Below, in pieces: positions 2,981-20,000 of a stretch of DNA of 20,000 bases (position 1 is its first letter; every line of letters starts with the position of its first letter). Both the position numbers and the translations under genes were made by a program. Origin of the DNA: an uncultured virus (IMG/VR IMGVR_UViG_3300003321_000657) (Duplodnaviria; Heunggongvirae; Uroviricota; Caudoviricetes); the IMG/VR virus record IMGVR_UViG_3300003321_000657. One strand, given 5' to 3'. The notes beneath the pieces are model-generated. The model searched no databases and was not told the DNA's origin. It saw only the letters and a program-made list of their open reading frames with translations.

Positions 2981-3319
2981 ATGGCGAGAGAAAGGCTGGC
3001 TCCATCGCAACTGGATACACCAGCATTCCGGAAGATCGTCGCAACGGCACCGGATTACATGCGCGATCTGACGGAGCTGTACCGCGATCACAACGACTAT
3101 AACGATCGCGTCAAGATCAAGGTCCGCATCAAGATTTTGCTCGACCTTCTGTCGGTCGACACTGCTTACCCGGCCGAGCTACCCAAGAGTCAGCCGGGCA
3201 TGAACCGCATCAACGTACACGACAACAACGGCATGGCCGCACCGTTAGCTCCTGCCGTAAATGTCGTCAACCCGATCGCCCAAGGAGAAGGACGCAATGG
3301 AAACCAAGACCAGCTCTGA
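2981..3319 (+). CDS. Hypothetical protein
   Basis: AAGGAG RBS, ATG start. Confidence 0.75.
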   Translation: MARERLAPSQLDTPAFRKIVATAPDYMRDLTELYRDHNDYNDRVKIKVRIKILLDLLSVDTAYPAELPKSQPGMNRINVHDNNGMAAPLAPAVNVVNPIAQGEGRNGNQDQL

Positions 3320-3791
3320 CGTCAACTGCGTGATCGCGGTGACCGGTCCGTCCGGTCACACGCAACTGGAATTTCGCGACGACGGCGTCGTGATCGACTG
3401 GGCCAAGACCACCGGTAAAGAGCGGGACATGATCACGGCCATGATCGAGAACGCCCGCAAGGAAGGCTTCACGACATGGGCGCTTAACGACGAAGACCAG
3501 CCGGAGGAGATCACGGAGAAGCTGCCCGGGTTCTTCTTCAACCGCAAAGGCCGCATGCTGCTCAAGACTGACTCGCCGCCAAAGTTGCAGGTGCTCGCCA
3601 AGGGCATCATTGATCAGCGCATCAAGAACGGCAAGGTGGCGATGGAGGTCGGAAAGGACGGAGAGTGGAAGATCATTTCCTTGGGCGATTTCCAGCTCAA
3701 GATCGCCGACAAAGAGCCCAAGATCAAGAAGGAAGTCGAGAAAAAAGAGCCGCAGAAAGTCCACGTTCAGGAAAAGATTGGAGGCGGCTGA
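3297..3791 (+). CDS. Protein ending in -IGGG; candidate ubiquitin-like modifier
   Basis: AAGGAG RBS; C-terminal KIGGG*; two similar segments (RKEGFTTWALNDED and KNGKVAMEVGKDGE). Confidence 0.6.
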   Translation: METKTSSDVNCVIAVTGPSGHTQLEFRDDGVVIDWAKTTGKERDMITAMIENARKEGFTTWALNDEDQPEEITEKLPGFFFNRKGRMLLKTDSPPKLQVLAKGIIDQRIKNGKVAMEVGKDGEWKIISLGDFQLKIADKEPKIKKEVEKKEPQKVHVQEKIGGG

Positions 3792-4003
3792 TGAGGCGCA
3801 TTTCAGAGCGAAGGCTCACGCGGCTGGAGTTCGAGGTCGGCAGCCACGATCCGCACCATCCACTCATTGACATGGTCGAGGAGATCCGCGCGCTGCGGAA
3901 GCTGGAGGAGGCTGTGCGCGCCCGCGGCGAACTGCCGGAAACGGCCGGGGAGATGGGCATCCGGGAAGAGCTGGCAAAGATCCCGGAGCTAAAGGAGGAG
4001 TGA
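3791..4003 (+). CDS. Hypothetical protein
   Basis: TGATG overlap, GGAGG RBS (MRRISERRL...). Confidence 0.7.
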   Translation: MRRISERRLTRLEFEVGSHDPHHPLIDMVEEIRALRKLEEAVRARGELPETAGEMGIREELAKIPELKEE

Positions 4004-4197
4004 TGAGCGAAAAATTCTGGTTCCGGTTAGCGGCAATGGCCTGTGGAACTCTTATCGGCATCATCGTGATCGTCGAGGTCTCGCGACATATGGAAGACCG
4101 GCTGTTGTACGAGTCTGGTCTGCGGCCGCAGGTTGAGCACGATGCTCTCGGCAATCGAAGGCTCTACTGGAGTCGGCCAGCATCGGAGCAGTTCTGA
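4003..4197 (+). CDS. Small single-TM membrane protein
   Basis: AGGAGG RBS; hydrophobic LAAMACGTLIGIIVIV. Confidence 0.7.
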   Translation: MSEKFWFRLAAMACGTLIGIIVIVEVSRHMEDRLLYESGLRPQVEHDALGNRRLYWSRPASEQF

Positions 4198-4475
4198 TGG
4201 CGTTCGACACGAAAAAGCTCAAGCCGCCGCCCGGGCATCCGCGCTTCCGGATCAAAGAGAACGGCGAGATCAGTTTCCAAGTCGCGCCAGTGAGCTACGG
4301 CTGGCGCTTTGTTAGAGAACTGGACGGATATGAGCGCGAATGCGTGTGTTGCGTGGCCTACCGTCACTGGCGGCTGATCCGCGACGAAAATCCAGAGAGC
4401 TGGGATAACATTAAGCAGGAAAAGATGGCGTCAGATCAGATGCGCTACTGGGATGATTTCCGAGAGAGTAAGTGA
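4197..4475 (+). CDS. Hypothetical protein (CxC-C cluster)
   Basis: TGATG overlap, GGAG RBS. Confidence 0.7.
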   Translation: MAFDTKKLKPPPGHPRFRIKENGEISFQVAPVSYGWRFVRELDGYERECVCCVAYRHWRLIRDENPESWDNIKQEKMASDQMRYWDDFRESK

Positions 4476-4759
4476 TCTACAGATACCGCGCCCGCTGCCG
4501 TCGTTGCAAGCGAGAGATCAGCAGCCCGGTCGAATGGCTGGATAAGCCGTACTGTATGTGCGGACGACAAATGGTTCGATTGCCGAATAGGACAGACGAT
4601 GAACTACGACATGACCACACCCTGCAACGACTGTCCATTCCTGAAAAAGTACAAGAAGGGATTCACGACGCGAAGGCTCCAAGAGTTCATACAGGGCGAG
4701 TTTCCGTGCCACAAGACGGCCGAAGACGACGAAGAGGAAGGGCTTGTCGGAACGGATAA
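4472..4759 (+). CDS. Zinc-ribbon protein; 3' half overlaps the next gene
   Basis: YRARCRRC...PYCMCGRQMVR; GTGA overlap. Confidence 0.55.
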   Translation: MIYRYRARCRRCKREISSPVEWLDKPYCMCGRQMVRLPNRTDDELRHDHTLQRLSIPEKVQEGIHDAKAPRVHTGRVSVPQDGRRRRRGRACRNG

Positions 4760-4889
4760 AAGCTCTCATTGCGCAGGCGCGCTCATCTATATGGAAAAGC
4801 ACAACCGTAGTCACCAGATGATGCGGATCGCTGAGCGTCTGTGCCTGTACGATCATACGAAGCTAAACATGGAGGCGGATGTACGATGA
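4599..4889 (+). CDS. Cys/His metal-binding phage protein (DUF6283-like)
   Basis: PCNDCPF...FPCHKT...HCAGAL pattern. Confidence 0.75.
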   Translation: MNYDMTTPCNDCPFLKKYKKGFTTRRLQEFIQGEFPCHKTAEDDEEEGLVGTDKSSHCAGALIYMEKHNRSHQMMRIAERLCLYDHTKLNMEADVR

Positions 4890-5125
4890 ACGATCCGCTG
4901 GTGGAAGTTCGTAACCCGCACGGCATCGATCTGATCAAGATCGCGTTCCGTCGCATGAAGGTTCCACAGAATGTCGTCGATCATCGCATTATCGCCGGAG
5001 ATTGTACGCGCGCTGGCGGCGACCGTATCTGTGAGCGCTGTGGCCTCGAATACCGCGATCATCCGGTAATCGACGGCATGGAGTTTCTTCACGTGATCTG
5101 CGATTGGAGGGTGTACAAGCTGTGA
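4886..5125 (+). CDS. Hypothetical zinc-binding protein
   Basis: RAGGDRICERCG..Y..HP...LHVICD; ATGA overlap. Confidence 0.75.
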   Translation: MNDPLVEVRNPHGIDLIKIAFRRMKVPQNVVDHRIIAGDCTRAGGDRICERCGLEYRDHPVIDGMEFLHVICDWRVYKL

Positions 5126-5127
5126 AT

Positions 5128-5430
5128 ATGATCACCCTGCCTGATCCGAGGGATGCCACGCGCATGATCGAGTTGGAGATCCCAGCCGACTGCGAGTATT
5201 TCCAGCGCGGAGTTTTGAAGCCGGTCTGGAATTTCGTTATGCCGCCCGGCCGCGGGATAGAGATCCGGATCTGCGCCGAGCTGCCAATCATTGCCGCCGT
5301 GGCCGCTGAGTGGTGGGACGCCAAGGCGCAATTCGAAATGTCTCAGAAGGACGACACTTACCGCGCATATGCGCGGAGATGGCGCTTATTCACGGCTCAA
5401 CCCACACTCGATAGCGCATTGGAGAACTGA
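5128..5430 (+). CDS. Hypothetical protein
   Basis: Fills the gap on the + strand; start at ATG 5128 or GTG 5122. Confidence 0.7.
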   Translation: MITLPDPRDATRMIELEIPADCEYFQRGVLKPVWNFVMPPGRGIEIRICAELPIIAAVAAEWWDAKAQFEMSQKDDTYRAYARRWRLFTAQPTLDSALEN

Positions 5431-5432
5431 CG

Positions 5433-6173
5433 ATGGATCATCCATTTGAACTGGCGCAGAATGCCGTCAAGATCGTCATCGAGCACGGCACGCATCACTC
5501 CGGCCGAAAACATATCGACGTCCAGCCGGAGTACTGCCTGAAATCCGCCGCTCAAGAGCTATCCGAATTAACGTTCGCAGAAGGCGTCTCACAGAACTGC
5601 GCGGCTGATAATAGACTAGAAGAGCTGGCCGACGTCTTCATCGCGCTCTTCCACTACAAGTTTAAAGTGCTCTATCAAATGCGAGACGGTATCACCGATC
5701 TTGAGCTGGCGCTCATGATCGTCAAGAAGCTGGCCGCGCGCAATGAAATGCCGCAGAGCTGGAAAGACAAATTGTGGTCGATCGAAGCATCGCTGATCAA
5801 TCAGCTACCGATCAGCAATAGAGATGAGTCTCCGTATCCAAAGCGCAAGACGCTTGCCGACTGCAAGACTCCGAACGAAGCGAAGGCGCTCAATGGCGAC
5901 AGTAACTACGTCTGCACGGGCAAGTGGTTAGAGGATTCTGGGCAAGCCGGGAGCGCAGTCGTCGTCAGTATCAACGGCAAGGACTGTTACTATCGCTACG
6001 GGCTTACGTGTGTGACCCTCTTCTGGCTCAAGGTCGAAGTGCTGGCGCGAAACGGTTACGGGGCCGATCAGCTCGAAGACTGGACACTCATTACCTACGG
6101 CGGATCACGCGTAGATCTAAACCAATTGGTCAGCGTTGGCACGTACTTCCTCAACAAACGTGGCGGAGCTTAA
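5433..6173 (+). CDS. MazG-like NTP pyrophosphohydrolase domain fused to a C-terminal DUF2604-like ubiquitin-like domain
   Basis: N-term QELSEL...RLEELADVFIAL (all-alpha NTP-PPase pattern). C-term VVSING...VLARNGY...EDWTL...G..VDLNQ...YFLNKRGGA. Confidence 0.6.
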   Translation: MDHPFELAQNAVKIVIEHGTHHSGRKHIDVQPEYCLKSAAQELSELTFAEGVSQNCAADNRLEELADVFIALFHYKFKVLYQMRDGITDLELALMIVKKLAARNEMPQSWKDKLWSIEASLINQLPISNRDESPYPKRKTLADCKTPNEAKALNGDSNYVCTGKWLEDSGQAGSAVVVSINGKDCYYRYGLTCVTLFWLKVEVLARNGYGADQLEDWTLITYGGSRVDLNQLVSVGTYFLNKRGGA

Positions 6174-6175
6174 AT

Positions 6176-7672
6176 ATGTGGGGTGAATTCCACGACTCTC
6201 CATACTTGGTCGCGCTGGCCGAGAATCCGGACTTCGTCCCGGAGAACGAACAGCGCGCCATGGAATTGATGCAATCGCTCTGCGATCCGGAGCGCTTTGG
6301 CATCTACATCCAGACTGGCTGCATCCACGCGCGCGGCAACCTCACGGGTAAGATCTACCGCATCGAACACGGTAAGGGCCACGGCGCCGGGTGCTGGGAG
6401 CTCGAAGATGGTAAGCCGCAGTTCTACTGGTGTACTACCAAGAGCGCAGAGACATGGAAGGCGGATATTCCCGACACCGACCATGTCCTCACGCTCAAGA
6501 ATATGATCGAGGGCGAAGAAGCGCGCTTCCGCACGATCGCCAATCGCAGCTCGGCCGACTACCACCGCATGGATACCTTCGAAGATGAGGGCAGCTACCG
6601 TAATTTTGCGGCCGTCATGAAACAGAGCCCGTACGAGATCTCGATCGCCAAGGAAAGTAGCGCACTCGAAAAGAAGCACGATCTGGGAGTGATGATCTAC
6701 CGCGACCCGTTCTTCGACGAGATCAAGAAGGACGGCGACTCTGGCTTCGAAGACAATGTCGACATGCTTACGGTCGGAGCTGAATCCATGTTCCGACTTC
6801 ACCCGCAGCTCAAGCGCTGGCGCAACAACGCCGGTCCGCATGACATTCAGATTCTCGATGAGATCCGCCCGGGCGATCTGGATCTTGTCCGCGTCTGCCG
6901 CACCAACGATCTGTGGCCGTACGAAGGTGAGCCGCCCGGCTACCCGGGTCCCCGCGCCACGGATGCCTACGCTTGCGAACGCTTCAATAAGGCACAGCGC
7001 CTCCATCACATGACCATGGCCTTCGACGATCGCGTAGAGCACATGGTCCGCAATGAAGCGGCCGATCTTGGTCCCGATAACGGCACCTGCTACTTACAAG
7101 GGTTTATCGACGGCATGGCAACTGCCCGGCCGCGTCGGCGTGAGCGTGAATGGGCCGGGCTGGAGCGTCTCGATATCAACCCAGCAGACGCAGAAGGCTA
7201 CGTCCCGGGCTTTCTTGAAGCGGACGACATGCAGGCGCACATGGAGCCGCGCGATGCCGCCATCTTCCGCGACGCGTACATGCGCGGCCTTGAAGCCCGC
7301 AATCAACAGAACAATCAGCTCAACTATGGATTTGGAAACTACTACCCGCTGGCGATCAATGGTCCGATCGATTGCGGATACAATGCGAGAACTTTGACGG
7401 TCACAAACAGCGCCTACTACACAATTAAGCCGCTCAAGGCGGAGATCGGCGAGATCAGTGACTCGCCCGGCAGGCGCTGCGAAAGGCTCGAAGACTTCTT
7501 CGCCATAGCGTGCGAATACGACGCCATGGCCGGAATCGATGACGCGGCCGAGCTCAAAGAGATTCCTAACGAGGATCTTACAGCCGCGAAGTGGGATAAT
7601 GATAAGGTTTGTGGAGTCGATCTGAACCTACCCGACGTGGGGATCATGAAGTATTTCGAGGAGGTGGCATGA
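6176..7672 (+). CDS. Large phage protein with an N-terminal Cys-containing domain
   Basis: GGAG RBS, ATG 6176 two bases after the previous stop. RAMELM..L...G...TGKIYRI...FYWC...IP..D.VLTLK.MIEGEE.RF..IANR; later short YxxGFxx repeats. Confidence 0.75.
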   Translation: MWGEFHDSPYLVALAENPDFVPENEQRAMELMQSLCDPERFGIYIQTGCIHARGNLTGKIYRIEHGKGHGAGCWELEDGKPQFYWCTTKSAETWKADIPDTDHVLTLKNMIEGEEARFRTIANRSSADYHRMDTFEDEGSYRNFAAVMKQSPYEISIAKESSALEKKHDLGVMIYRDPFFDEIKKDGDSGFEDNVDMLTVGAESMFRLHPQLKRWRNNAGPHDIQILDEIRPGDLDLVRVCRTNDLWPYEGEPPGYPGPRATDAYACERFNKAQRLHHMTMAFDDRVEHMVRNEAADLGPDNGTCYLQGFIDGMATARPRRREREWAGLERLDINPADAEGYVPGFLEADDMQAHMEPRDAAIFRDAYMRGLEARNQQNNQLNYGFGNYYPLAINGPIDCGYNARTLTVTNSAYYTIKPLKAEIGEISDSPGRRCERLEDFFAIACEYDAMAGIDDAAELKEIPNEDLTAAKWDNDKVCGVDLNLPDVGIMKYFEEVA

Positions 7673-10053: not shown

Positions 10054-10436
10054 TGGAAAGACCAGTCGAGTTCGCTGAGTATCTTTCTGGTTACAGCCCG
10101 GTCTTATATGACGGTTGGTGTGGGGAACCAACAGCGTGGGGATTTAAAATCAGGCAGCGTATGGGAGAAGACAAGTTCTCCGCTCTCAGTCGCTACATGA
10201 CATCAATCGGCGGCGGTACAGAATGTGTTACTCTTGGTGAGTGGGTCGCGGTCGTGACCTATCTAAAACCGCAGGAAGCTATTGAAAAATATGGAGCCAT
10301 TACTGAGGTAGTTACCGGACCTCGCGGTGGATTCCGCACCGTTAAATACGGAGAAAAGAAATTTGTTTGCAAGCGCCTTGATCCAAGGCGCGCAGAAATT
10401 CCGGTAGATCCACGATTGATTCGAGTTGAAAAATGA
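10053..10436 (+). CDS. Hypothetical protein, lower GC than neighbours
   Basis: GAGGAG RBS; coupled to both neighbours; many A/T-ending codons. Confidence 0.75.
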   Translation: MERPVEFAEYLSGYSPVLYDGWCGEPTAWGFKIRQRMGEDKFSALSRYMTSIGGGTECVTLGEWVAVVTYLKPQEAIEKYGAITEVVTGPRGGFRTVKYGEKKFVCKRLDPRRAEIPVDPRLIRVEK

Positions 10437-12097
10437 AGCTCGCAATGCCGAAAGACGCGTGGGGTCCATGGGAACCGCGCTGGTGGCAGGCCGATTCTCT
10501 CCCCAAGCTCATCACCGAGTACAACCAGCCCATCCCCGGATCAAATGTGGTCCGAGCCGTGACCGGCTCCGGCAAGAGTAAGTCTATGGCGCAATTGGCC
10601 GCGTGCGCCATTCTCGAACCGAACGAATGTATAGTCGTTTCCACGCCATCCAAGTTTCTCGTCGAACAACTGGAAGACACCTTCCGTGAGCGCCTCGAAG
10701 GCGGGTTCATGTCTGGGACCAAGCGCGTCGGTACGTTCTACACCGACAGCAAAGACTACATGACCCCCATCATCATCTGCTGCACACCCAGCTTGGAAGA
10801 GCTGGCTAAGCGACTGGAGGCAAGTAAGCGCCGATGCGCGCTGTGGATCTGCGACGAAGTCCACCGCAGCTACGCGGCCATGGTCGTCAATGGCATCGAA
10901 AAGCTGCGGCCGCTGGCGTCGCTAGGCTACGGCGCCACGCCTTACCGGGCGAAGTGGAGTGAAAGCCTGCATCTGTTCGATCAGCTCATCTACGAATACA
11001 AGCCAGAGCAGGCGATCAAGTACGGCGACGTCGTGCCATTCAGGGCTGTGTTCTGGAACGGCGGCGAAGGCGGACTGGATGATGCCTGTATATCAATGAC
11101 CGAGCTGGCCGATGGTCCGGGTATGTACAATGCCGTGTCGATCGACGATGCGGACATGTTCGCCATCAAGCTTAATGAGCAAGGGATACCGGCGCAGTCG
11201 ATCCACAGCCGGATGCCCAAGGCAGAGCGCAAGAAGCGTATCGAAGATCTGCGTACGGGCAAGCTGCGAGCATTGATCCACGTCAGCATCCTACAGGAGG
11301 GCGCAGATCTGCCGTGGCTGCGCTGGCTATGTATGCGACGGCCGGTGACCAGCCGCGTGCGCTTCATTCAGGAGATCGGCCGGGTCATCCGCGGCTACAC
11401 CGATAAGGTGACCGGGATCAAAAAGACCGAGGCCGTGCTTTACGATCCGCATGGACTCCTGCAAGACTTTTCAATGACGTACGACGAAGTACTGGGCGGC
11501 GAGCGGGAGGTGGAAGAGGACGATGAAGAAGAAAAGCCGTCCCAGAAAAAGAAGAAGGTCTTTGAACAGCTCATTTTTGAAGTCATGCGCGAGCTGGTTA
11601 ATGTGCGTGCTGGCAAGAAGCCGCTATGCGTCACGCCTCTGGCAGCGTATCTGACGGAGCTCACCACCGCCTTCGACCTCTGTCAGCTTATCGATAGCAA
11701 GATCACGAGCCGGGAATGGCGGCAGAAACCGGCCACAGAGAAACAGGCGACCGGCGCCAAGTACCTCTCCAAGGAAGCCAACCGGGCATGCGTCCCAAAA
11801 GTCCACCGCGCGCCATTAAAAATGCTGGCCGACACGGTCGGAAAATGGAGCGACGCCGGGCAGTTTACGCCCATGCTCAGCCGGGGTTTAGCGTCAGACC
11901 TGACGTCTGTCTTAATGTCGCTGGCCGATAAAAAATCTTGGCCAGACCTAAAGGTTTTGGACCGATCTGCCGAAGATAGTATGAGAGCACACGAGCAGCG
12001 GCAGCGCGAGCTGACCAACCGCCCGGCCACGGCCCAACAGATAGTGCTCCCGCACCAGAAGGTACACAAGAAGGAACAGGGGCCGCAACTTTTTTAA
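10433..12097 (+). CDS. Superfamily 2 DEAD/DEAH-box helicase (ResIII/Helicase_C)
   Basis: AVTGSGKS (I), DEVH (II), GATP (III), LQEGADLP (V), QEIGRVIR (VI); C-terminal PATEKQ...LSRGLAS motif. Confidence 0.93.
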   Translation: MKLAMPKDAWGPWEPRWWQADSLPKLITEYNQPIPGSNVVRAVTGSGKSKSMAQLAACAILEPNECIVVSTPSKFLVEQLEDTFRERLEGGFMSGTKRVGTFYTDSKDYMTPIIICCTPSLEELAKRLEASKRRCALWICDEVHRSYAAMVVNGIEKLRPLASLGYGATPYRAKWSESLHLFDQLIYEYKPEQAIKYGDVVPFRAVFWNGGEGGLDDACISMTELADGPGMYNAVSIDDADMFAIKLNEQGIPAQSIHSRMPKAERKKRIEDLRTGKLRALIHVSILQEGADLPWLRWLCMRRPVTSRVRFIQEIGRVIRGYTDKVTGIKKTEAVLYDPHGLLQDFSMTYDEVLGGEREVEEDDEEEKPSQKKKKVFEQLIFEVMRELVNVRAGKKPLCVTPLAAYLTELTTAFDLCQLIDSKITSREWRQKPATEKQATGAKYLSKEANRACVPKVHRAPLKMLADTVGKWSDAGQFTPMLSRGLASDLTSVLMSLADKKSWPDLKVLDRSAEDSMRAHEQRQRELTNRPATAQQIVLPHQKVHKKEQGPQLF

Positions 12098-14382: not shown

Positions 14383-14793
14383 ATGAGCGACTGCGACGAG
14401 CCAGACTTCTACAACGAACACTTCCGCACTGCGCGCAAGTGGCACAAATGCTGTGAGTGCGAAACGCTGATCGATCCCGGCGACAAGTACGTAGCCTGCG
14501 TCGGCAAATGGGATCGCAGCGTTCACGTTTATAAACAACATCTGTGCTGCTACCACATAGCCCGCTTCGTCAACCTTGATCTGCTGTCCTACTGGCCAGA
14601 CCTTCCAGAAGGACTACGCTACGCGCCTTTTCGTGAAAAAGTCCGCGAGGCATGCATCTCGTTTGGCGGGATTAAGTACGCCGTCGATGAGTTTTCCATA
14701 GGTGATTTCGAAAATTGCGTAGATGTGCTGGGATACTGGCAGCGCTGGCTCTCTGGAATTCGCGAAACGTTTTCAGAAGGAGCTGGGATATGA
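14383..14793 (+). CDS. Phage zinc-finger protein
   Basis: TARKWHKCCEC...I.PG.KY...HLCC; GAGGAG RBS. Confidence 0.8.
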   Translation: MSDCDEPDFYNEHFRTARKWHKCCECETLIDPGDKYVACVGKWDRSVHVYKQHLCCYHIARFVNLDLLSYWPDLPEGLRYAPFREKVREACISFGGIKYAVDEFSIGDFENCVDVLGYWQRWLSGIRETFSEGAGI

Positions 14794-15677
14794 GCCAGAA
14801 GAAAGCCATGTCGGCTGCCGACGTCATGAACAGCATCCGCGCGCGCTTCGCGGCGCAGAATGAATACACGGTGCTACAGCAGGTCGCCAACGCCACTGGC
14901 ATGTCTTGTTACTCATGGATCGATGCCGTGGTCATCAGCCTGTGGCCGTCGGCCGGGTGCAAGCGTAGCGCCTACGAGATCAAGGTCCACCGCGGTGATT
15001 GGCTGCGCGAGCGCGAGAACCCAGAGAAGAACCAGTGGGTGCGCGAATACTGCCACGAGTTTAGCTACGTAGCGCCCAACGGGATCATCAAAGAGGATGA
15101 GCTCCCGGCCGGAGTCGGTCTCTACCGCGCGAATGAGAAGACGATCACTGTCGTGCGGGCTCCGTCGTACCGCAATGATGCCAAGCTGGATGATGAGTTT
15201 CTCGCGGCTCTGGCGCGCGCTATGGACAAAGAGTTTCGGCGTAAGGAAGCGGAGCTGCATAAGACATTCAAGAACGATAATCGAGAATTTCGCTTGGCAG
15301 CCGTGTGGCAGGCAGCCGCGCATTCGTTCATCCGGCTTAGCGCTCAGTGGGCATCTGACCCGGACCCCACGGCGCCCGATGCGGTCACAAAGGCGCTGGA
15401 GCAGCTTAAAGCGGCTGGCGGCGGAAAAGCCGACCAGCGCGACAGGAAGCAGATAGAAGAATGCTGCTCACGCTTTCGCGAACACATCGCCGACAGCATG
15501 CAATTCTTTCTAGCCTTCGCGTACTACGGCATGCTCGATTTAGGCGAGCACCAGAATTTCATCCTGAACTACTACGGAACGTACGACGAGAAGGCGCTTC
15601 TTTCGAAAATGGAGAAGAACAAAGACAAGATGCGGGATGCGTTTTTGGAGCTGGTGAAGGCGAATCCAAGGGAGTGA
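14790..15677 (+). CDS. MmcB-like PD-(D/E)XK nuclease-fold protein
   Basis: IDAVVISLWPS...AYEIKVHRGDW.RE..NPEK...CHEFSYVAP...ELPAGVGL. Confidence 0.8.
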   Translation: MSQKKAMSAADVMNSIRARFAAQNEYTVLQQVANATGMSCYSWIDAVVISLWPSAGCKRSAYEIKVHRGDWLRERENPEKNQWVREYCHEFSYVAPNGIIKEDELPAGVGLYRANEKTITVVRAPSYRNDAKLDDEFLAALARAMDKEFRRKEAELHKTFKNDNREFRLAAVWQAAAHSFIRLSAQWASDPDPTAPDAVTKALEQLKAAGGGKADQRDRKQIEECCSRFREHIADSMQFFLAFAYYGMLDLGEHQNFILNYYGTYDEKALLSKMEKNKDKMRDAFLELVKANPRE

Positions 15678-15678
15678 T

Positions 15679-17004
15679 GTGGCGGCGGATAGTGACCTGC
15701 TGACGATTAAGCAGAGCGAACAGCTCATTCTGCAAGCGCTCGGTATCGACGCGCCCGGGTCGCACTGTCTCTGCCCACTCTGTAAACACAAGGCGCTTCG
15801 CGTCGGCTTGGAGAAGAAAGGCAGCGGCGTCTATCTCTGCCAGTGTATGAAATGCAATGGGGTCAAGGGCGACATCTTCAGCGTCTATAAGCTGGTCCAC
15901 AATCTCGAATTCAAACAGGCGCTGGCGATCTGCTGTGAGAAGCTCGGGATCAAGAACGGGACTGGCGGTGGTTACACGCGCACTCATGGCGTGCGGGCGC
16001 TCGATATCGACACCACGATCGCCGAAGCACAGCACAATCAGGATCAGCTCGAAAGCGAAGCGCCGGAGTCGGCCGAACTCGATATGGCCATGGCCGAGGA
16101 GTTCATCGACACCCATCACCGCTATCTCATGGACACGCAGAGTTGTATCGACACATGGCTCAAAGGTAAGCGCGGGATCTCTGAGGCTGTCGCCGAACAA
16201 TACCGGCTTGGCTTCGTCGAGAACTCCACGATCAAAATGTGGAGTAAAAAACATCAGAGCTGGTTTGATTCATATACTGAGGGCGCGTGGGTCCTTCCGA
16301 TCACGGACTGGCGCGGGAAGCTGCGCGCGATCAAGCTGCACTTCGAAGTCGTCGGCCGCTTCGGTAAGTGCGTCTGGATGCCTGTCGGCAAAGATCCGGA
16401 GAAGCGCTACGTCAGCTACAACACTTTCTGGCCGCACCTTTACTCGCAGTCCAAGTCTCTGCGGCCGGTAAACTTCACCGACGATCCGCTGTGGTGGCTA
16501 TCCAAGCTGCCTGACGGAGAATTGAAAGACCGCTTCGAATCGCAGAAGCAAATCAACGCGTTGACCTTCGCCTACGATCAGAAAAAAGCGGTCGAGGATT
16601 TGACTCCAGCACAGTGGGAGCAAATTATTCGCGAAACGTTTCCTGATTTTCAGAAGGATATCCAGAATGAGATATTGGCGCGCGGAGGCAAAGTCCAGCC
16701 GCCGCGCAATGTCCACGGATGGACGATCTGGGCGCCCGGCGAGCTCAAGGCGCTGGCATACGTGTCGGTGGCGGTGCAGGCGACGGCGCTGACGGCTGGC
16801 GAGGGCTATATCCCGCCGCCCGGCATGCTGCGCTGTTTCCGCGGACGACGCGTGGCGATCAATTGGGACGCCGACGTACCGAAGGTGGATGAGCAGGGGC
16901 AGATCCGCTGCACCGGCCGCGAGTTTGCCCATAAGGCAGTCGACGCATTAAAGAAAACCAGTGGCGTAAGAGAGGTTCGCGCTTTCACATGGGGAAGAAA
17001 ATAG
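15679..17004 (+). CDS. DNA primase-like protein (zinc finger plus incomplete TOPRIM)
   Basis: CPLC..H...CQCMKC..KGDIF...F.QA; WL.GKRGIS..V.EQYRLG; WVLPITD..G....IKL; WAPGELKAL; INWDAD. Confidence 0.82.
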   Translation: MAADSDLLTIKQSEQLILQALGIDAPGSHCLCPLCKHKALRVGLEKKGSGVYLCQCMKCNGVKGDIFSVYKLVHNLEFKQALAICCEKLGIKNGTGGGYTRTHGVRALDIDTTIAEAQHNQDQLESEAPESAELDMAMAEEFIDTHHRYLMDTQSCIDTWLKGKRGISEAVAEQYRLGFVENSTIKMWSKKHQSWFDSYTEGAWVLPITDWRGKLRAIKLHFEVVGRFGKCVWMPVGKDPEKRYVSYNTFWPHLYSQSKSLRPVNFTDDPLWWLSKLPDGELKDRFESQKQINALTFAYDQKKAVEDLTPAQWEQIIRETFPDFQKDIQNEILARGGKVQPPRNVHGWTIWAPGELKALAYVSVAVQATALTAGEGYIPPPGMLRCFRGRRVAINWDADVPKVDEQGQIRCTGREFAHKAVDALKKTSGVREVRAFTWGRK

Positions 17005-17013
17005 GAGGCTACA

Positions 17014-18354
17014 ATGGAAGCGGTTGCAGACATTCGTGACATCGTTCCGATCAAAGAACTCCCTCCCGAAGAATACGAAATCGAGAAATCAAAAAAGAAG
17101 GTGGACGCCAACGACAAGGTCGTCGAGCTCGGACCCTTCGGCGTCCTTGACGCGCTGGCCGAGGCGATCGACGCCCAGCCGCCCGTCTTCCGCGGTAAAT
17201 CCAAGATCGTCTCCCTACGGGATCTGCGGGCGCTCTATCCAAAGATGCGGGACCCCGTGATCGACGGCCTACTGCGCAAGGGCGAGATCATGAATATCAT
17301 TGCCGCGCCCAAGGCCGGTAAGAGCTGGCTAAGCCTTGATCTCACGCTGGCGGTGATTCAGGGCGCGAAGTGGTTCGGAAAATTCGATACGAAGCCCGGC
17401 CGCGTGCTGATCGTCGACAACGAACTGCATAAAGAGACGATCACGTTCCGAACACACGCTTCTGCACAGGCGCGAGCCATAAAACTCGACATGCAGTACG
17501 TCGATGACATGGTCGATTACATCCCTTTGAGGGGTGAATTAGTCGATTTGGAGCGGCTGGCCGACGAGCTGGCGGACATAGAACCGGGCGAGTATCGACT
17601 GATCATTCTCGATGCATTTTACCGGTTCATGCCACCCCGGACCGACGAAAACGACAATGGACAGATGACTAGCCTCTATAACCGTCTGGACTTATACGCA
17701 AACCAGACGGACGCGGCGATCTGCCTGATCCACCACACCACCAAGGGCCTTCAGGGCGGAAAGAAGGTCACCGACGTCGGAGCCGGTGCAGGTGTACAGT
17801 CCCGGGCGACGGACACCCACATGATCCTCCGGCCGCACAAGGAGCCGGACGTGATCGTGCTGGACGCGGCCGTGCGCTCATTCAAGCAGCCGCAGGCGCT
17901 GTGTCTCCGGCGCAAGTTTCCTACGTGGGAGATCGATACCAAGCTCAACCCGGAGGACCTCGAAGGCGTCGGCACCCAGAGCGAATTCACCCAGAACCGG
18001 CAGGTTCGTGAAGTCGAAAAGGAGCGCCTGCTGAACGCGTTGACGTCCTTCAAGACGATCAAGGAGATGGTCGCGATCGCCACCCAGATGGGCCTCAAAC
18101 TGGGCTACGGAGCCATTAACGCCGTCGTGACACAGAACTGGGAGCCCAACGGCCGCGTGGTTGCCCAGACCGGCCAGAAAGGGCCGAAAAAGTACATGAA
18201 ATCCGGCACCCAGCCGTCCACGCAAGTCCAACAAACAGGACCATCAACGGAATCGAACGATTCGGGGCAAGATGAGGCTACGGAATTGAATGAGACCCTT
18301 GATGCTGCGTCGGATTTTACTGAAGAGGAGATTGAAGACGTTCCTCCGTTCTAG
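17014..18354 (+). CDS. RepA-type (AAA_25, RecA-superfamily) replicative helicase
   Basis: AAPKAGKS Walker A, IVDNE, LIILD Walker B, DEND, IHHTTKG, GAGAG; AGGAGG RBS; acidic EDVPPF tail. Confidence 0.92.
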   Translation: MEAVADIRDIVPIKELPPEEYEIEKSKKKVDANDKVVELGPFGVLDALAEAIDAQPPVFRGKSKIVSLRDLRALYPKMRDPVIDGLLRKGEIMNIIAAPKAGKSWLSLDLTLAVIQGAKWFGKFDTKPGRVLIVDNELHKETITFRTHASAQARAIKLDMQYVDDMVDYIPLRGELVDLERLADELADIEPGEYRLIILDAFYRFMPPRTDENDNGQMTSLYNRLDLYANQTDAAICLIHHTTKGLQGGKKVTDVGAGAGVQSRATDTHMILRPHKEPDVIVLDAAVRSFKQPQALCLRRKFPTWEIDTKLNPEDLEGVGTQSEFTQNRQVREVEKERLLNALTSFKTIKEMVAIATQMGLKLGYGAINAVVTQNWEPNGRVVAQTGQKGPKKYMKSGTQPSTQVQQTGPSTESNDSGQDEATELNETLDAASDFTEEEIEDVPPF

Positions 18355-18685: not shown

Positions 18686-19159
18686 ATGCCAGCGTGGAAG
18701 CGTAAAGATCGGCGGAGTAGTATCGATAATTCACATCGTGATCCAGAGCCACTGGAGAAGGTCATATCGAGTCAGCCACGGGCGGTCTGCCTGTACTATG
18801 CGCTGGTGGAGTATGCGCAGGCGCGCGGCCTGCAAGAGATCTGGTTGACACGCCACCAGATGGCGCGGCTGGTCGGAGTCTCGGCCGGTGGAACGATCAG
18901 CGCTGCGCTCACGAAGCTGGCCAACTCAGCGTGGATCGTGAAGGACGTCTACAACGTCCAGAACGAAGAGACCGGCAACGTCGATCGCAAGATGCGGATC
19001 ACGTTTCACCGCAAATTTGGCGACAAGAAAAACTTTCCCGTCCGGCCGAAGCGCGAGCCCGAGCCGCCCGCCGAGCCATCCACGCCGCCGCAGATCGTGT
19101 CCGGTCCGGAGGTTCTTGAGATCGAAACTCTTGATGATATTCCGGAGGAACAGGCGTGA
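18686..19159 (+). CDS. Winged helix-turn-helix protein (replication-initiator-like N-terminal HTH)
   Basis: AVCLYYAL...LTRHQMARLVGVS..TISAALTKL...WI; GGAG RBS. Confidence 0.75.
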   Translation: MPAWKRKDRRSSIDNSHRDPEPLEKVISSQPRAVCLYYALVEYAQARGLQEIWLTRHQMARLVGVSAGGTISAALTKLANSAWIVKDVYNVQNEETGNVDRKMRITFHRKFGDKKNFPVRPKREPEPPAEPSTPPQIVSGPEVLEIETLDDIPEEQA

Positions 19160-19821
19160 GAGTTATTCTCAACAGAGACGAGTACGCTGGTTACTTGCGT
19201 ACGTTGGTTTGGAAGGAGCTTTGTAAAAAAGCCCTTCGTCGCGCTAGATATCGCTGTCAGTGTTGTTATAGCAAAAGGAATCTTCGCGTTCACCATCGGA
19301 CGTATTGCCGTCTCGGTCGAGAACGCGCCTCTGATTTAACCGTCGTCTGTCGACGTTGTCATCGCATTATGCACGCCACTGGATGCGCGCCGAGTTTGAG
19401 TCGCGCGCTAAAGATCAATGAACAGTTGTACGGAAAAATCAACCCTCAAGTCATTGAGAGACAGATGGAAAAAGCAGAGCGCTTTGCAATCTTAATAAAG
19501 ACTCTCAATGGAAAGAGAATGCAGAAACCAGATCTGATTAAGCTAATCCTGTGCAGAACTCGGAAATGGTCGTACGGACAACTTTCAAGGGCATTCGATC
19601 GCCTCGAATGGGAGCACAGAGTATTTGTCCGAGTGGAACATTTACGCAATGTCTTCGAAGTAAAAAAGGGGATTGAGAATGATTGGAGTCTTAAAACTAT
19701 TCCAGCCGGAGACGGCTCATGCGATCGGCAAGTGGGCGATGAAGCATCGCCTCCGGGCGCCCGGCCGGTATCGAGTCGTGACGGAGCGTGTGCAGCACAG
19801 TCCCGGCAGCTACAAAGTTGA
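19156..19821 (+). CDS. HNH endonuclease
   Basis: YL.T..W......RA.YRCQCC....L.VHH.TY..LG.E...DL..VC..CH...H. Confidence 0.88.
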
Positions 19822-20000
19822 CTGGCCGACGAAGTATCAGCTTTTCGGCAATTCAATCGATAACCCCTTCGGCCTTGCGGCCGGGTTCGACAAGAACGGC
19901 GAACTGGTGGACGTCATCCGTGACTACGGCTTCGGCTTCATGGAAGTCGGCAGCGTCACCTACCGCGGCGGCAAAGGCAATCCGCGGCCGCGCCTCTTCC
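19679..20000 (+). CDS. pyrD: Class-2 (quinone) dihydroorotate dehydrogenase, 5' part (runs off the window; not in ORF track)
   Basis: Manual translation from ATG 19679: ...PETAH...[13 protein letters not shown]...[11 protein letters not shown]...GNPRPRLF. Confidence 0.93.

Follow-up and report, generated by a model that had tools for sequence, protein, structure and literature searches.

A phage MazG-like pyrophosphohydrolase fused to a putative ubiquitin-like domain with a capped di-glycine end

An uncultured virus of the class Caudoviricetes (IMG/VR record IMGVR_UViG_3300003321_000657) encodes, within a 20,000-nucleotide stretch of DNA that is hereafter called the window, a 246-residue protein in which a MazG-like all-alpha nucleoside triphosphate (NTP) pyrophosphohydrolase is joined by a linker to a C-terminal domain that quite probably adopts the beta-grasp fold of ubiquitin-like proteins (Ubls) and that ends in Gly-Gly-Ala. 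The gene, referred to here as the MazG-Ubl gene, occupies positions 5433..6173 of the plus strand (246 codons and a stop codon), exactly where a preliminary description of this DNA, made from its letters and their open reading frames (ORFs), had placed it. The two-domain architecture is largely supported, and an anti-defence role may reasonably be proposed for the protein. While both the type of enzyme and the type of Ubl are known, their phage-borne fusion is new.

A Genuine Open Reading Frame

The MazG-Ubl fusion is a genuine open reading frame. It is preceded by a GGAG ribosome-binding site, read from the sequence (5421..5424, plus strand), 8 nucleotides 5' of the ATG, the stop codon of the ORF upstream lying at 5428-5430. 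Its coding signal was computed as a codon-usage log-likelihood trained on 25 other plus-strand ORFs of the window. Over the whole gene, this signal amounts to 0.44 bits per codon in frame versus -0.44 and -0.56 in the other frames, and it is maintained along the protein, with 0.495 bits per codon in the N-terminal domain, 0.375 in the linker (here residues 116-170) and 0.405 in the C-terminal domain, all three parts scoring negatively in the two alternative frames. The GC content at the three codon positions likewise agrees with the genes of the window.

The ORF is also covered, in pieces, by Logan contigs from four runs belonging to a single root-metagenome study, which show no differing letter and no gap; single contigs span 5605-6700 in one run (X1) and 5000-5929 in another (X2). 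The source sample of the window may itself be among these four runs. An assembly artefact or a merger of two genes was considered and is ruled out by the coding signal together with the agreeing contigs from the four runs. Because no ATG, GTG or TTG is present in frame around residues 160-172, the C-terminal domain can be produced only as part of the fusion. The protein forms a singleton cluster which is present on two contigs, the longer one of 129,915 bases; a word-index search retrieved no protein besides itself, and no RNA run is among the sequencing runs listed as carrying the sequence.

The N-Terminal Domain Is a MazG-Like Enzyme

Residues 1-123 (5433..5801, plus strand) are established as a MazG-like all-alpha NTP pyrophosphohydrolase domain with an intact metal site, on the basis of sequence evidence and of an AlphaFold2 (AF2) model. 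Enzymes of the MazG superfamily bind metal through an E-x-x-E ... E-x-x-D motif carried by adjacent helices. The acidic pattern pointed out in the preliminary description is indeed present, as Q41-E42-L-S-E45 and E63-E64-L-A-D67, and the resulting motif, E42-x-x-E45 followed after 18 residues by E64-x-x-D67 (5556..5633, plus strand; residues checked by script), is invariant in all six sequences of the alignment described below.

Using phmmer on 1.84 billion representative sequences, five true homologues were retrieved beyond the protein itself (E 4.9e-13 to 1.4e-4). All five are standalone proteins of 113-182 residues that match only residues 4-121; a sixth match, a repetitive cadherin-like protein, was discarded as spurious. 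Alignment of the protein with these homologues shows nine invariant residues (H21, G24, E42, E45, E64, D67, H74, K99 and R103). The profile of the six sequences matches YpjD from B. subtilis (PDB 2gta, E 0.0069), the two acidic motifs being aligned to EELGELA ... EEIGDVL, with the K...R pair also in register.

The protein as a whole matches no Pfam family even at E<=10 and hence reaches no MazG family cut-off. One of its homologues, P0003, scores above the gathering threshold of Pfam MazG (PF03819; 24.9 vs 22 bits), while the remaining four give sub-threshold matches to MazG, MazG-like, PRA-PH or dATP/dGTP-PPase families; sub-threshold dATP/dGTP-PPase matches occur in four of the five homologues. 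Since the cut-off is passed by P0003 and not by the protein itself, membership in the MazG-like superfamily is transitive. The proposed agreement with MazG profiles is thus borne out through a homologue and through YpjD, but not by a Pfam match of the protein itself. Searches of the PDB with phmmer retrieved nothing at E<=10, PHROGs returned only noise (E 0.14 and 0.5), and the protein had no match in NCBIfam or PADLOC.

Structure prediction points to the same family. With the six-row alignment as input, AF2 predicts helices at residues 4-18, 32-47, 56-81, 89-101 and 108-123 with a predicted local distance difference test (pLDDT) of about 60-80 (58-80 per ten-residue block over residues 1-130). 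When this model was compared by VIA-align to 48,161 PDB representative chains, eight of the ten top rows carried MazG or pyrophosphatase titles, including E. coli MazG, M. tuberculosis MazG and the MazG-like enzyme of cyanophage S-2L, at Z scores of 7.0-8.2, which are modest for a helical bundle as values below about 13 are common among such folds. The other two rows, 6j22 and 2a3q, are presumably HisIE and RS21-C6, from the same superfamily. Foldseek retrieved nothing from the PDB at E<=0.001, MazG entries being ranked 3, 15, 20, 23 and 39 with template-modelling (TM) scores by target of 0.53-0.60. The five predicted helices, with MazG-type enzymes as their best structural matches, agree with the fold anticipated in the preliminary description.

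The protein shares with small MazG-like enzymes (PF03819, PF12643, PF04447; YpjD 2gta, S-2L 7ody) the four-helix fold and the metal motif and, with those of phages, a genomic context of replication and nucleotide-metabolism genes. Unlike them, it has no Pfam match of its own and belongs to a subfamily with invariant H21 and G24 in an H-H-S-G loop. This loop (residues 21-24; 5493-5504), located between helix 1 and helix 2, is found in the small MazG-like subfamily (P0002-P0007) and is absent from the MazG motif. Together with H74, the H21/G24 loop may be the mark of a particular substrate specificity. As for catalysis, the substrate that the domain would hydrolyse is most likely either a nucleoside triphosphate or a nucleotide of the alarmone type.

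The counter-defence activity of some MazG-like enzymes from phages, put forward in the preliminary description, is supported by Atd1, a phage MazG-like pyrophosphatase which, according to a single preprint abstract, depletes (p)ppGpp and protects against TIR-STING toxicity (10.1101/2022.06.09.495361). The likeness between the two proteins is one of description, both being phage MazG-like enzymes, with a counter-defence role in the case of Atd1; unlike for the MazG-Ubl protein, no Ubl domain is named in the abstract on Atd1.

DUF2604 and the Type II BilABCD Operons

The preliminary description related the C-terminal ~70 residues of the protein to DUF2604. This family corresponds to BilA, the ubiquitin-like modifier encoded in Type II BilABCD (CEHH/6C) operons, which carry out ubiquitination directed against phages. 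Its profile matches PDB entries 8tyx, 8tyy, 8tyz and 8tz0, labelled 'Ubl(BilA)', with an E value of 3e-38, and complete Type II BilABCD operons were found in two Pseudomonadota genomes (locus L014, 3224-6211, minus strand; locus L015, 2621-5573, plus strand), in both cases with the gene order DUF2604, Metal_CEHH, Prok-JAB and Prok-E2_C+ThiF. Overall, DUF2604 (PF10790) exceeds its cut-off in 4 of the 401 Pseudomonadota genomes sampled.

In the relevant passages of Chambers et al., the operon coding for a Ubl, a CEHH/E2 protein, a deubiquitinase (DUB) and an E1 is renamed Type II BilABCD and is reported mostly from plant-associated Rhizobiaceae (PMC10557695). The same passages describe that E. 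aridi BilA ends in Gly97-Ala98, between which the JAB DUB BilC cleaves, and that Ala98 occupies the E1 adenylation site, where it would exclude ATP, that it blocks adenylation and that no conjugates are formed as long as Ala98 is still on BilA; BilA homologues carry up to nine residues beyond the conserved glycine (PMC10557695). In our searches, the DUF2604 matches with a named source came from Rhizobium, Mesorhizobium, Ensifer and Aminobacter, and from one Chthoniobacterales metagenome-assembled genome (MAG). The phage sequence comes from a root metagenome and Type II Bil is biased towards Rhizobiaceae, an ecological overlap that is suggestive only.

A Predicted Beta-Grasp Domain Behind a Flexible Linker

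Between the two domains, residues 124-170 (5802..5942, plus strand) form a linker rich in Pro, Lys, Ser and Asn, which is covered by no homologue and for which AF2 gives a pLDDT of 38-53 over residues 131-170. This linker of about 47 residues is probably flexible. It leads to residues 171-246 (5943..6170, plus strand), a candidate ubiquitin-like domain recognized from its ESM Atlas model and from its score against a DUF2604 hidden Markov model (HMM). This domain is quite probably a ubiquitin-like beta-grasp, as judged mainly from one kind of predictor.

A model of the protein itself, with a mean pLDDT of 0.54 over its whole length, is available in the ESM Atlas. A structure search with residues 168-246 (region compared in the model, residues 173-245) ranked first a DUF2604 cluster, with TM scores of 0.65 by query and 0.61 by row over 72 aligned residues, TM values above 0.5 carrying little meaning for short stretches. 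Six of the ten rows had a named family within or next to the aligned part, and in all six it was a beta-grasp family: DUF2604 twice, Raf-RBD, TUG-UBL1/UBX, PB1 and ThiS. Beta-grasp neighbours were found both in whole-protein and in part searches, whereas an Atlas feature search with the C-terminal domain gave no usable match. AF2 run with the six-row alignment predicts, in this region, strands at residues 175-180 and 183-188, a helix at 193-206 and short strands at 218-220 and 226-228, which up to this point is the succession of elements of a beta-grasp; the AF2 model from the single sequence (mean pLDDT 37.5) was unusable.

Sequence comparison relied on a reference set of 94 aligned DUF2604 proteins, out of 252 homologues from the protein collection. 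The HMM derived from these 94 members scores the protein at 6.2 bits, a value reached by none of 2000 composition-preserving shuffles (maximum 6.0), the membership threshold of PF10790 being 25 bits. When the domain was added to the alignment by MAFFT, 12 of 31 highly conserved DUF2604 columns were identical (N-G, L, L, E-x-W-x-L, G, D, F-L and G), and the motif order NG, E-x-W-x-L, G, D, F-L, G is common to the domain and the family. A BLASTP comparison to a single DUF2604 member gave an E value of 0.25. At most, this signal is a faint family-specific echo of DUF2604, and sequence comparison does not support membership of the domain in that family.

The protein terminates in F-L-N-K-R-G-G-A-stop, that is, as the preliminary description had noted, in a di-glycine capped by one alanine (G244-G245-A246; 6162..6170, plus strand; read from the sequence). 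Of the 94 DUF2604 proteins, 44 stop at the conserved glycine, and the other 50 extend 1-6 residues beyond it, in four cases by a single alanine. A conserved C-terminal glycine followed by 0-9 non-conserved residues, a feature of little weight alone, is found in G244-G245-A246. Since E. aridi BilA ends in Gly97-Ala98 and 50 of the 94 DUF2604 members are extended, a Gly-Gly with one alanine cap corresponds to the known layout of BilA-family pro-forms. Similarly, the idea that the alanine may be trimmed, raised in the preliminary description, has a concrete precedent because BilC cuts between Gly97 and Ala98 of E. aridi BilA.

Collectively, the domain resembles Type II BilA (PF10790; PDB 8tyx, 8tyy, 8tyz, 8tz0) in the size of its predicted beta-grasp, its best structural neighbour, its motif order (NG, E-x-W-x-L, G, D, F-L) and its end in a glycine and one alanine, as in G97-A98 of the E. 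aridi protein. Unlike Type II BilA, it stays below the HMM threshold, has a tail about 3 residues shorter, is fused behind an enzyme and is phage-encoded, with no Ubl-E2-DUB-E1 operon in the window.

The layout of another domain followed by a single C-terminal beta-grasp is also seen in N-terminally extended bacterial Ubls, of which coiled-coil-Ubl1, DUF1508-Ubl1 and N/G-rich tail-Ubl1 arrangements are described from Bil/Bub operons in the sections concerned of PMC11601603. In these host operons, the N-terminal domains described there serve oligomerisation or are disordered, whereas here the gene is that of a phage and the N-terminal domain is an enzyme. Neither 'MazG' nor 'pyrophosph' was found in two supplementary files of that article.

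A Possible Decoy of Host Ubiquitin-Like Machinery

The explanation that we favour is that of one phage polypeptide with two modules, a MazG-like NTP pyrophosphohydrolase and a flexibly tethered BilA-like beta-grasp with a Gly-Gly-Ala pro-form end. The Ubl-like module would be recognised by the ubiquitin-like machinery of the host, namely a Bil-type E1, E2 or JAB DUB, chiefly as a competing decoy or as a pro-form occupying the DUB or the E1. In the solved complex from E. aridi, the adenylation site of the E1 is occupied by capped BilA, which would keep ATP out. That the module engages host ubiquitin-like machinery, preferably as a decoy or pro-form and counting conjugation variants as well, is proposed tentatively, at somewhat less than even confidence. 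A complex prediction in which a BilD-like E1 of a different host stood in as the partner of residues 168-246 gave no answer (score 0.00) and speaks neither for nor against binding.

In a less likely variant of this explanation, the C-terminal domain would serve as a handle for conjugation of the enzyme itself. Once Ala246 is lost, the whole MazG protein would be attached via G245 to a target by an E1/E2 of host or phage origin, in the manner of the cGAS/CD-NTase of Type II CBASS, which is conjugated by Cap2. The latter is, in the portions of PMC10557695 and PMC10097602 that deal with it, an enzyme with its own conjugatable C-terminus and a published precedent for conjugation by an E1-E2 fusion, and a GG-A tail behind a flexible linker would fit a tethered cargo. 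However, the C-terminus of the CD-NTase is a tail and not a beta-grasp, and this enzyme belongs to a host defence whose E1-E2 gene lies next to its own, while neither E1 nor E2 is present in our window. With a tail shorter than that of BilA and no evident benefit for a phage in being tagged by a host defence, covalent attachment appears highly improbable.

The most far-reaching form of the decoy proposal would make the protein the first phage antagonist of Bil-type defence, a BilA mimic in pro-form, produced early and abundantly, that would block the DUB or the E1 adenylation site by means of its capped Gly-Gly-Ala end and would be coupled to a MazG enzyme removing a nucleotide which host defence needs or uses as a signal, so that one chain would combine two counter-defences. 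In this full form, the proposal is improbable.

Alternative Readings of the C-Terminal Domain

Several results weigh against a BilA-like module and concern its fold, its tail and its genomic setting. Regarding the fold, no relative of the C-terminal domain was found among the 1.84 billion representatives or in 5.8 billion clusters (used alone as query, the domain yielded three candidates, none at E<=10), and it reaches no family threshold in Pfam (E<=10), NCBIfam or PADLOC. The hhalign comparison with the 94 DUF2604 proteins, although in register, has a probability of 1.9% (P 0.026), and the score of 12 conserved columns out of 31 is equalled by 9 of 200 shuffles, which makes this test marginal. 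The pLDDT of the domain is below 57 in both AF2 models, and the better one has a helix (residues 229-242) at the expected place of the last beta-strand. As the AF2 confidence is too low in this domain, the beta-grasp rests on a single ESMFold-type model.

The lack of relatives, the low hhalign probability, the low confidence of both AF2 models and the small meaning of TM > 0.5 on short stretches would all suit a C-terminus which is not ubiquitin-like, its last 75 residues being an orphan extension or a partly disordered tail whose DUF2604 likeness and GG stem from chance and from a ribosome-binding site. Yet the named-family neighbours in the Atlas are consistently beta-grasp proteins, in whole-protein and in part searches alike, and the strand-strand-helix order at residues 175-206 is present even in the low-confidence AF2 models. 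The DUF2604 HMM score above all 2000 shuffles and the normal coding signal of the C-terminal segment also speak against such a tail, which we regard as unlikely. What persists of the earlier DUF2604 assignment is the best structural neighbour and the motif order, but not a Pfam or profile-profile match, and the beta-grasp expected from modelling is returned by the Atlas model but not by AF2, in which the last strand is not formed.

Regarding the tail, the terminal GG taken by itself is close to chance: GG or GGx ends occur in 5 of the 166 six-frame ORFs of at least 60 residues in the window, and glycine frequency puts the probability of such an end at about 1.35%. The downstream gene has its GGAG ribosome-binding site (6165..6168, plus strand) 7 nucleotides before its ATG at 6176, inside the codons of G245-A246 (GGA GCT). 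Because of this overlap the glycines are under a further constraint, and a terminal GG carries little weight on its own. Measured between the F-L of the last strand and the terminal glycine, the tail lacks about 3 residues relative to DUF2604 and might be unable to reach a BilD-type adenylation site. The length of the tail from the last strand is nearer to that of ubiquitin, so the partner, if there is one, need not be a Type II BilD.

Regarding the genomic setting, Pfam reveals no ThiF/E1, E2, Metal_CEHH or JAB protein among the 34 other plus-strand ORFs of the window, no JAMM or HPN motif occurs in the 35 ORFs checked, including that of the MazG-Ubl protein, and the fusion is present only in this single sequence.

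With no conjugation enzyme in the window, a ribosome-binding site in the last codons and GG or GGx ends arising by chance among the six-frame ORFs, the domain could be a beta-grasp acting as a non-covalent adaptor or regulatory module for the MazG enzyme, comparable to RBD, PB1, UBX or TGS domains, with an incidental GG-A. Among its Atlas neighbours, Raf-RBD, PB1 and TUG-UBL1/UBX are non-conjugated families, consistent with such a role. The best structural neighbour is nonetheless a conjugatable Ubl family, DUF2604/BilA, the weak sequence signal is specific to conserved DUF2604 motifs, and a last strand running into K-R-G-G plus one cap is the exact pro-form layout of BilA, shared by 50 of 94 DUF2604 members. 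Such an adaptor role is less likely than the decoy reading, to which it comes next in probability.

Genomic Context and Relatives

According to Pfam and PHROGs, the window is a tightly packed one-strand phage block of replication and nucleotide-metabolism genes. On the plus strand upstream of the MazG-Ubl gene are found a Dam-type methyltransferase (725-1339), a DUF1064 resolvase-like protein (1569-2051) and a DUF3850 protein annotated as RNA-binding in PHROGs (2558-2968), followed by many small ORFs without assigned function (2981-5430). Two of the ORFs in this region, at 4472-4759 and 4599-4889 (plus strand), overlap in different frames, and a family assignment exists for the second alone (phrog_5443, E 1e-21).

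The MazG-Ubl gene is directly followed by a translationally coupled gene of 498 codons (6176..7672, plus strand), which starts 2 nucleotides after its stop codon and whose product matches nothing in Pfam, PHROGs, NCBIfam or PADLOC, nor anything among GenBank phages by tblastn. Further downstream, all on the plus strand, are an SF2 helicase (10433-12097), a DNA-repair-like PHROG (14715-15677), a primase-like protein (15679-17004), an AAA_25 primase/helicase (17014-18354) and an HNH endonuclease (19156-19821). Last in the window, a dihydroorotate-dehydrogenase-like gene (19673-19999, plus strand; DHO_dh E 6e-13, phrog_14943) begins and runs off the end. In the genome collection, its best relative has 57% identity and is encoded on a contig of 7 kb that was assigned to a Woesearchaeota MAG but may come from a phage itself, and other relatives come from Motiliproteus and Helicobacteraceae MAGs (35-42% identity). 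The window contains no tRNA, and neither a promoter nor a terminator of note was found close to the MazG-Ubl gene.

Megablast and tblastn searches of 50,697 GenBank phage records gave no match for the window or for the MazG-Ubl protein, and the primase-like gene had only distant matches among GenBank phages (< 60% identity). By sequence comparison, the phage is new relative to these records. Loci with relatives of the MazG-Ubl protein were found neither in IMG/VR nor in JGI metagenomes or GTDB genomes. The alignment A1 used as query in IMG/VR likewise retrieved no related loci, and its profile gave two weak matches, in 275-residue ORFs (E 0.002-0.007), among the 401 Pseudomonadota genomes.

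In IMG/VR, the homologue P0004 led to one standalone MazG of 131 residues without a Ubl (locus L024) and P0003 to no match. The linker and the C-terminal domain are thus found only in this protein, the five homologues and the IMG/VR relative in L024 being standalone proteins of 113-182 residues. Canonical DUF2604 was detected neither in IMG/VR, with three patterns, nor in GenBank phages, where a single member served as tblastn query. As for a host, the MazG-Ubl protein had no match in four genomes reached through pyrD loci, and comparison of the window DNA to four Bil-carrying genomes showed only a conserved pyrD stretch and short chance matches, with no host link.

Significance

Bacterial ubiquitin-like conjugation, as carried out by Bil, Bub and Type II CBASS, is a recently established form of anti-phage defence. 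No phage counter-measure against Bil was found by a term search of the preprint by Hör et al., in those parts of a 2026 review that deal with Bil or in literature listings, and the term 'DUF2604' was not found in the literature searched. Among papers combining MazG, ubiquitin-like, fusion and phage, none reports such a fusion by its title, and in the passages of PMC9503650 that mention MazG and ubiquitin-like proteins the two are not connected.

Should the ubiquitin-like reading of the C-terminal domain fail, the protein would simply be an ordinary MazG of a phage that bears an orphan tail. If the reading is true, the MazG-Ubl protein would exemplify, in bacteria, a virus mimicking a ubiquitin-like modifier of its host, in parallel to what is known from viruses of eukaryotes.

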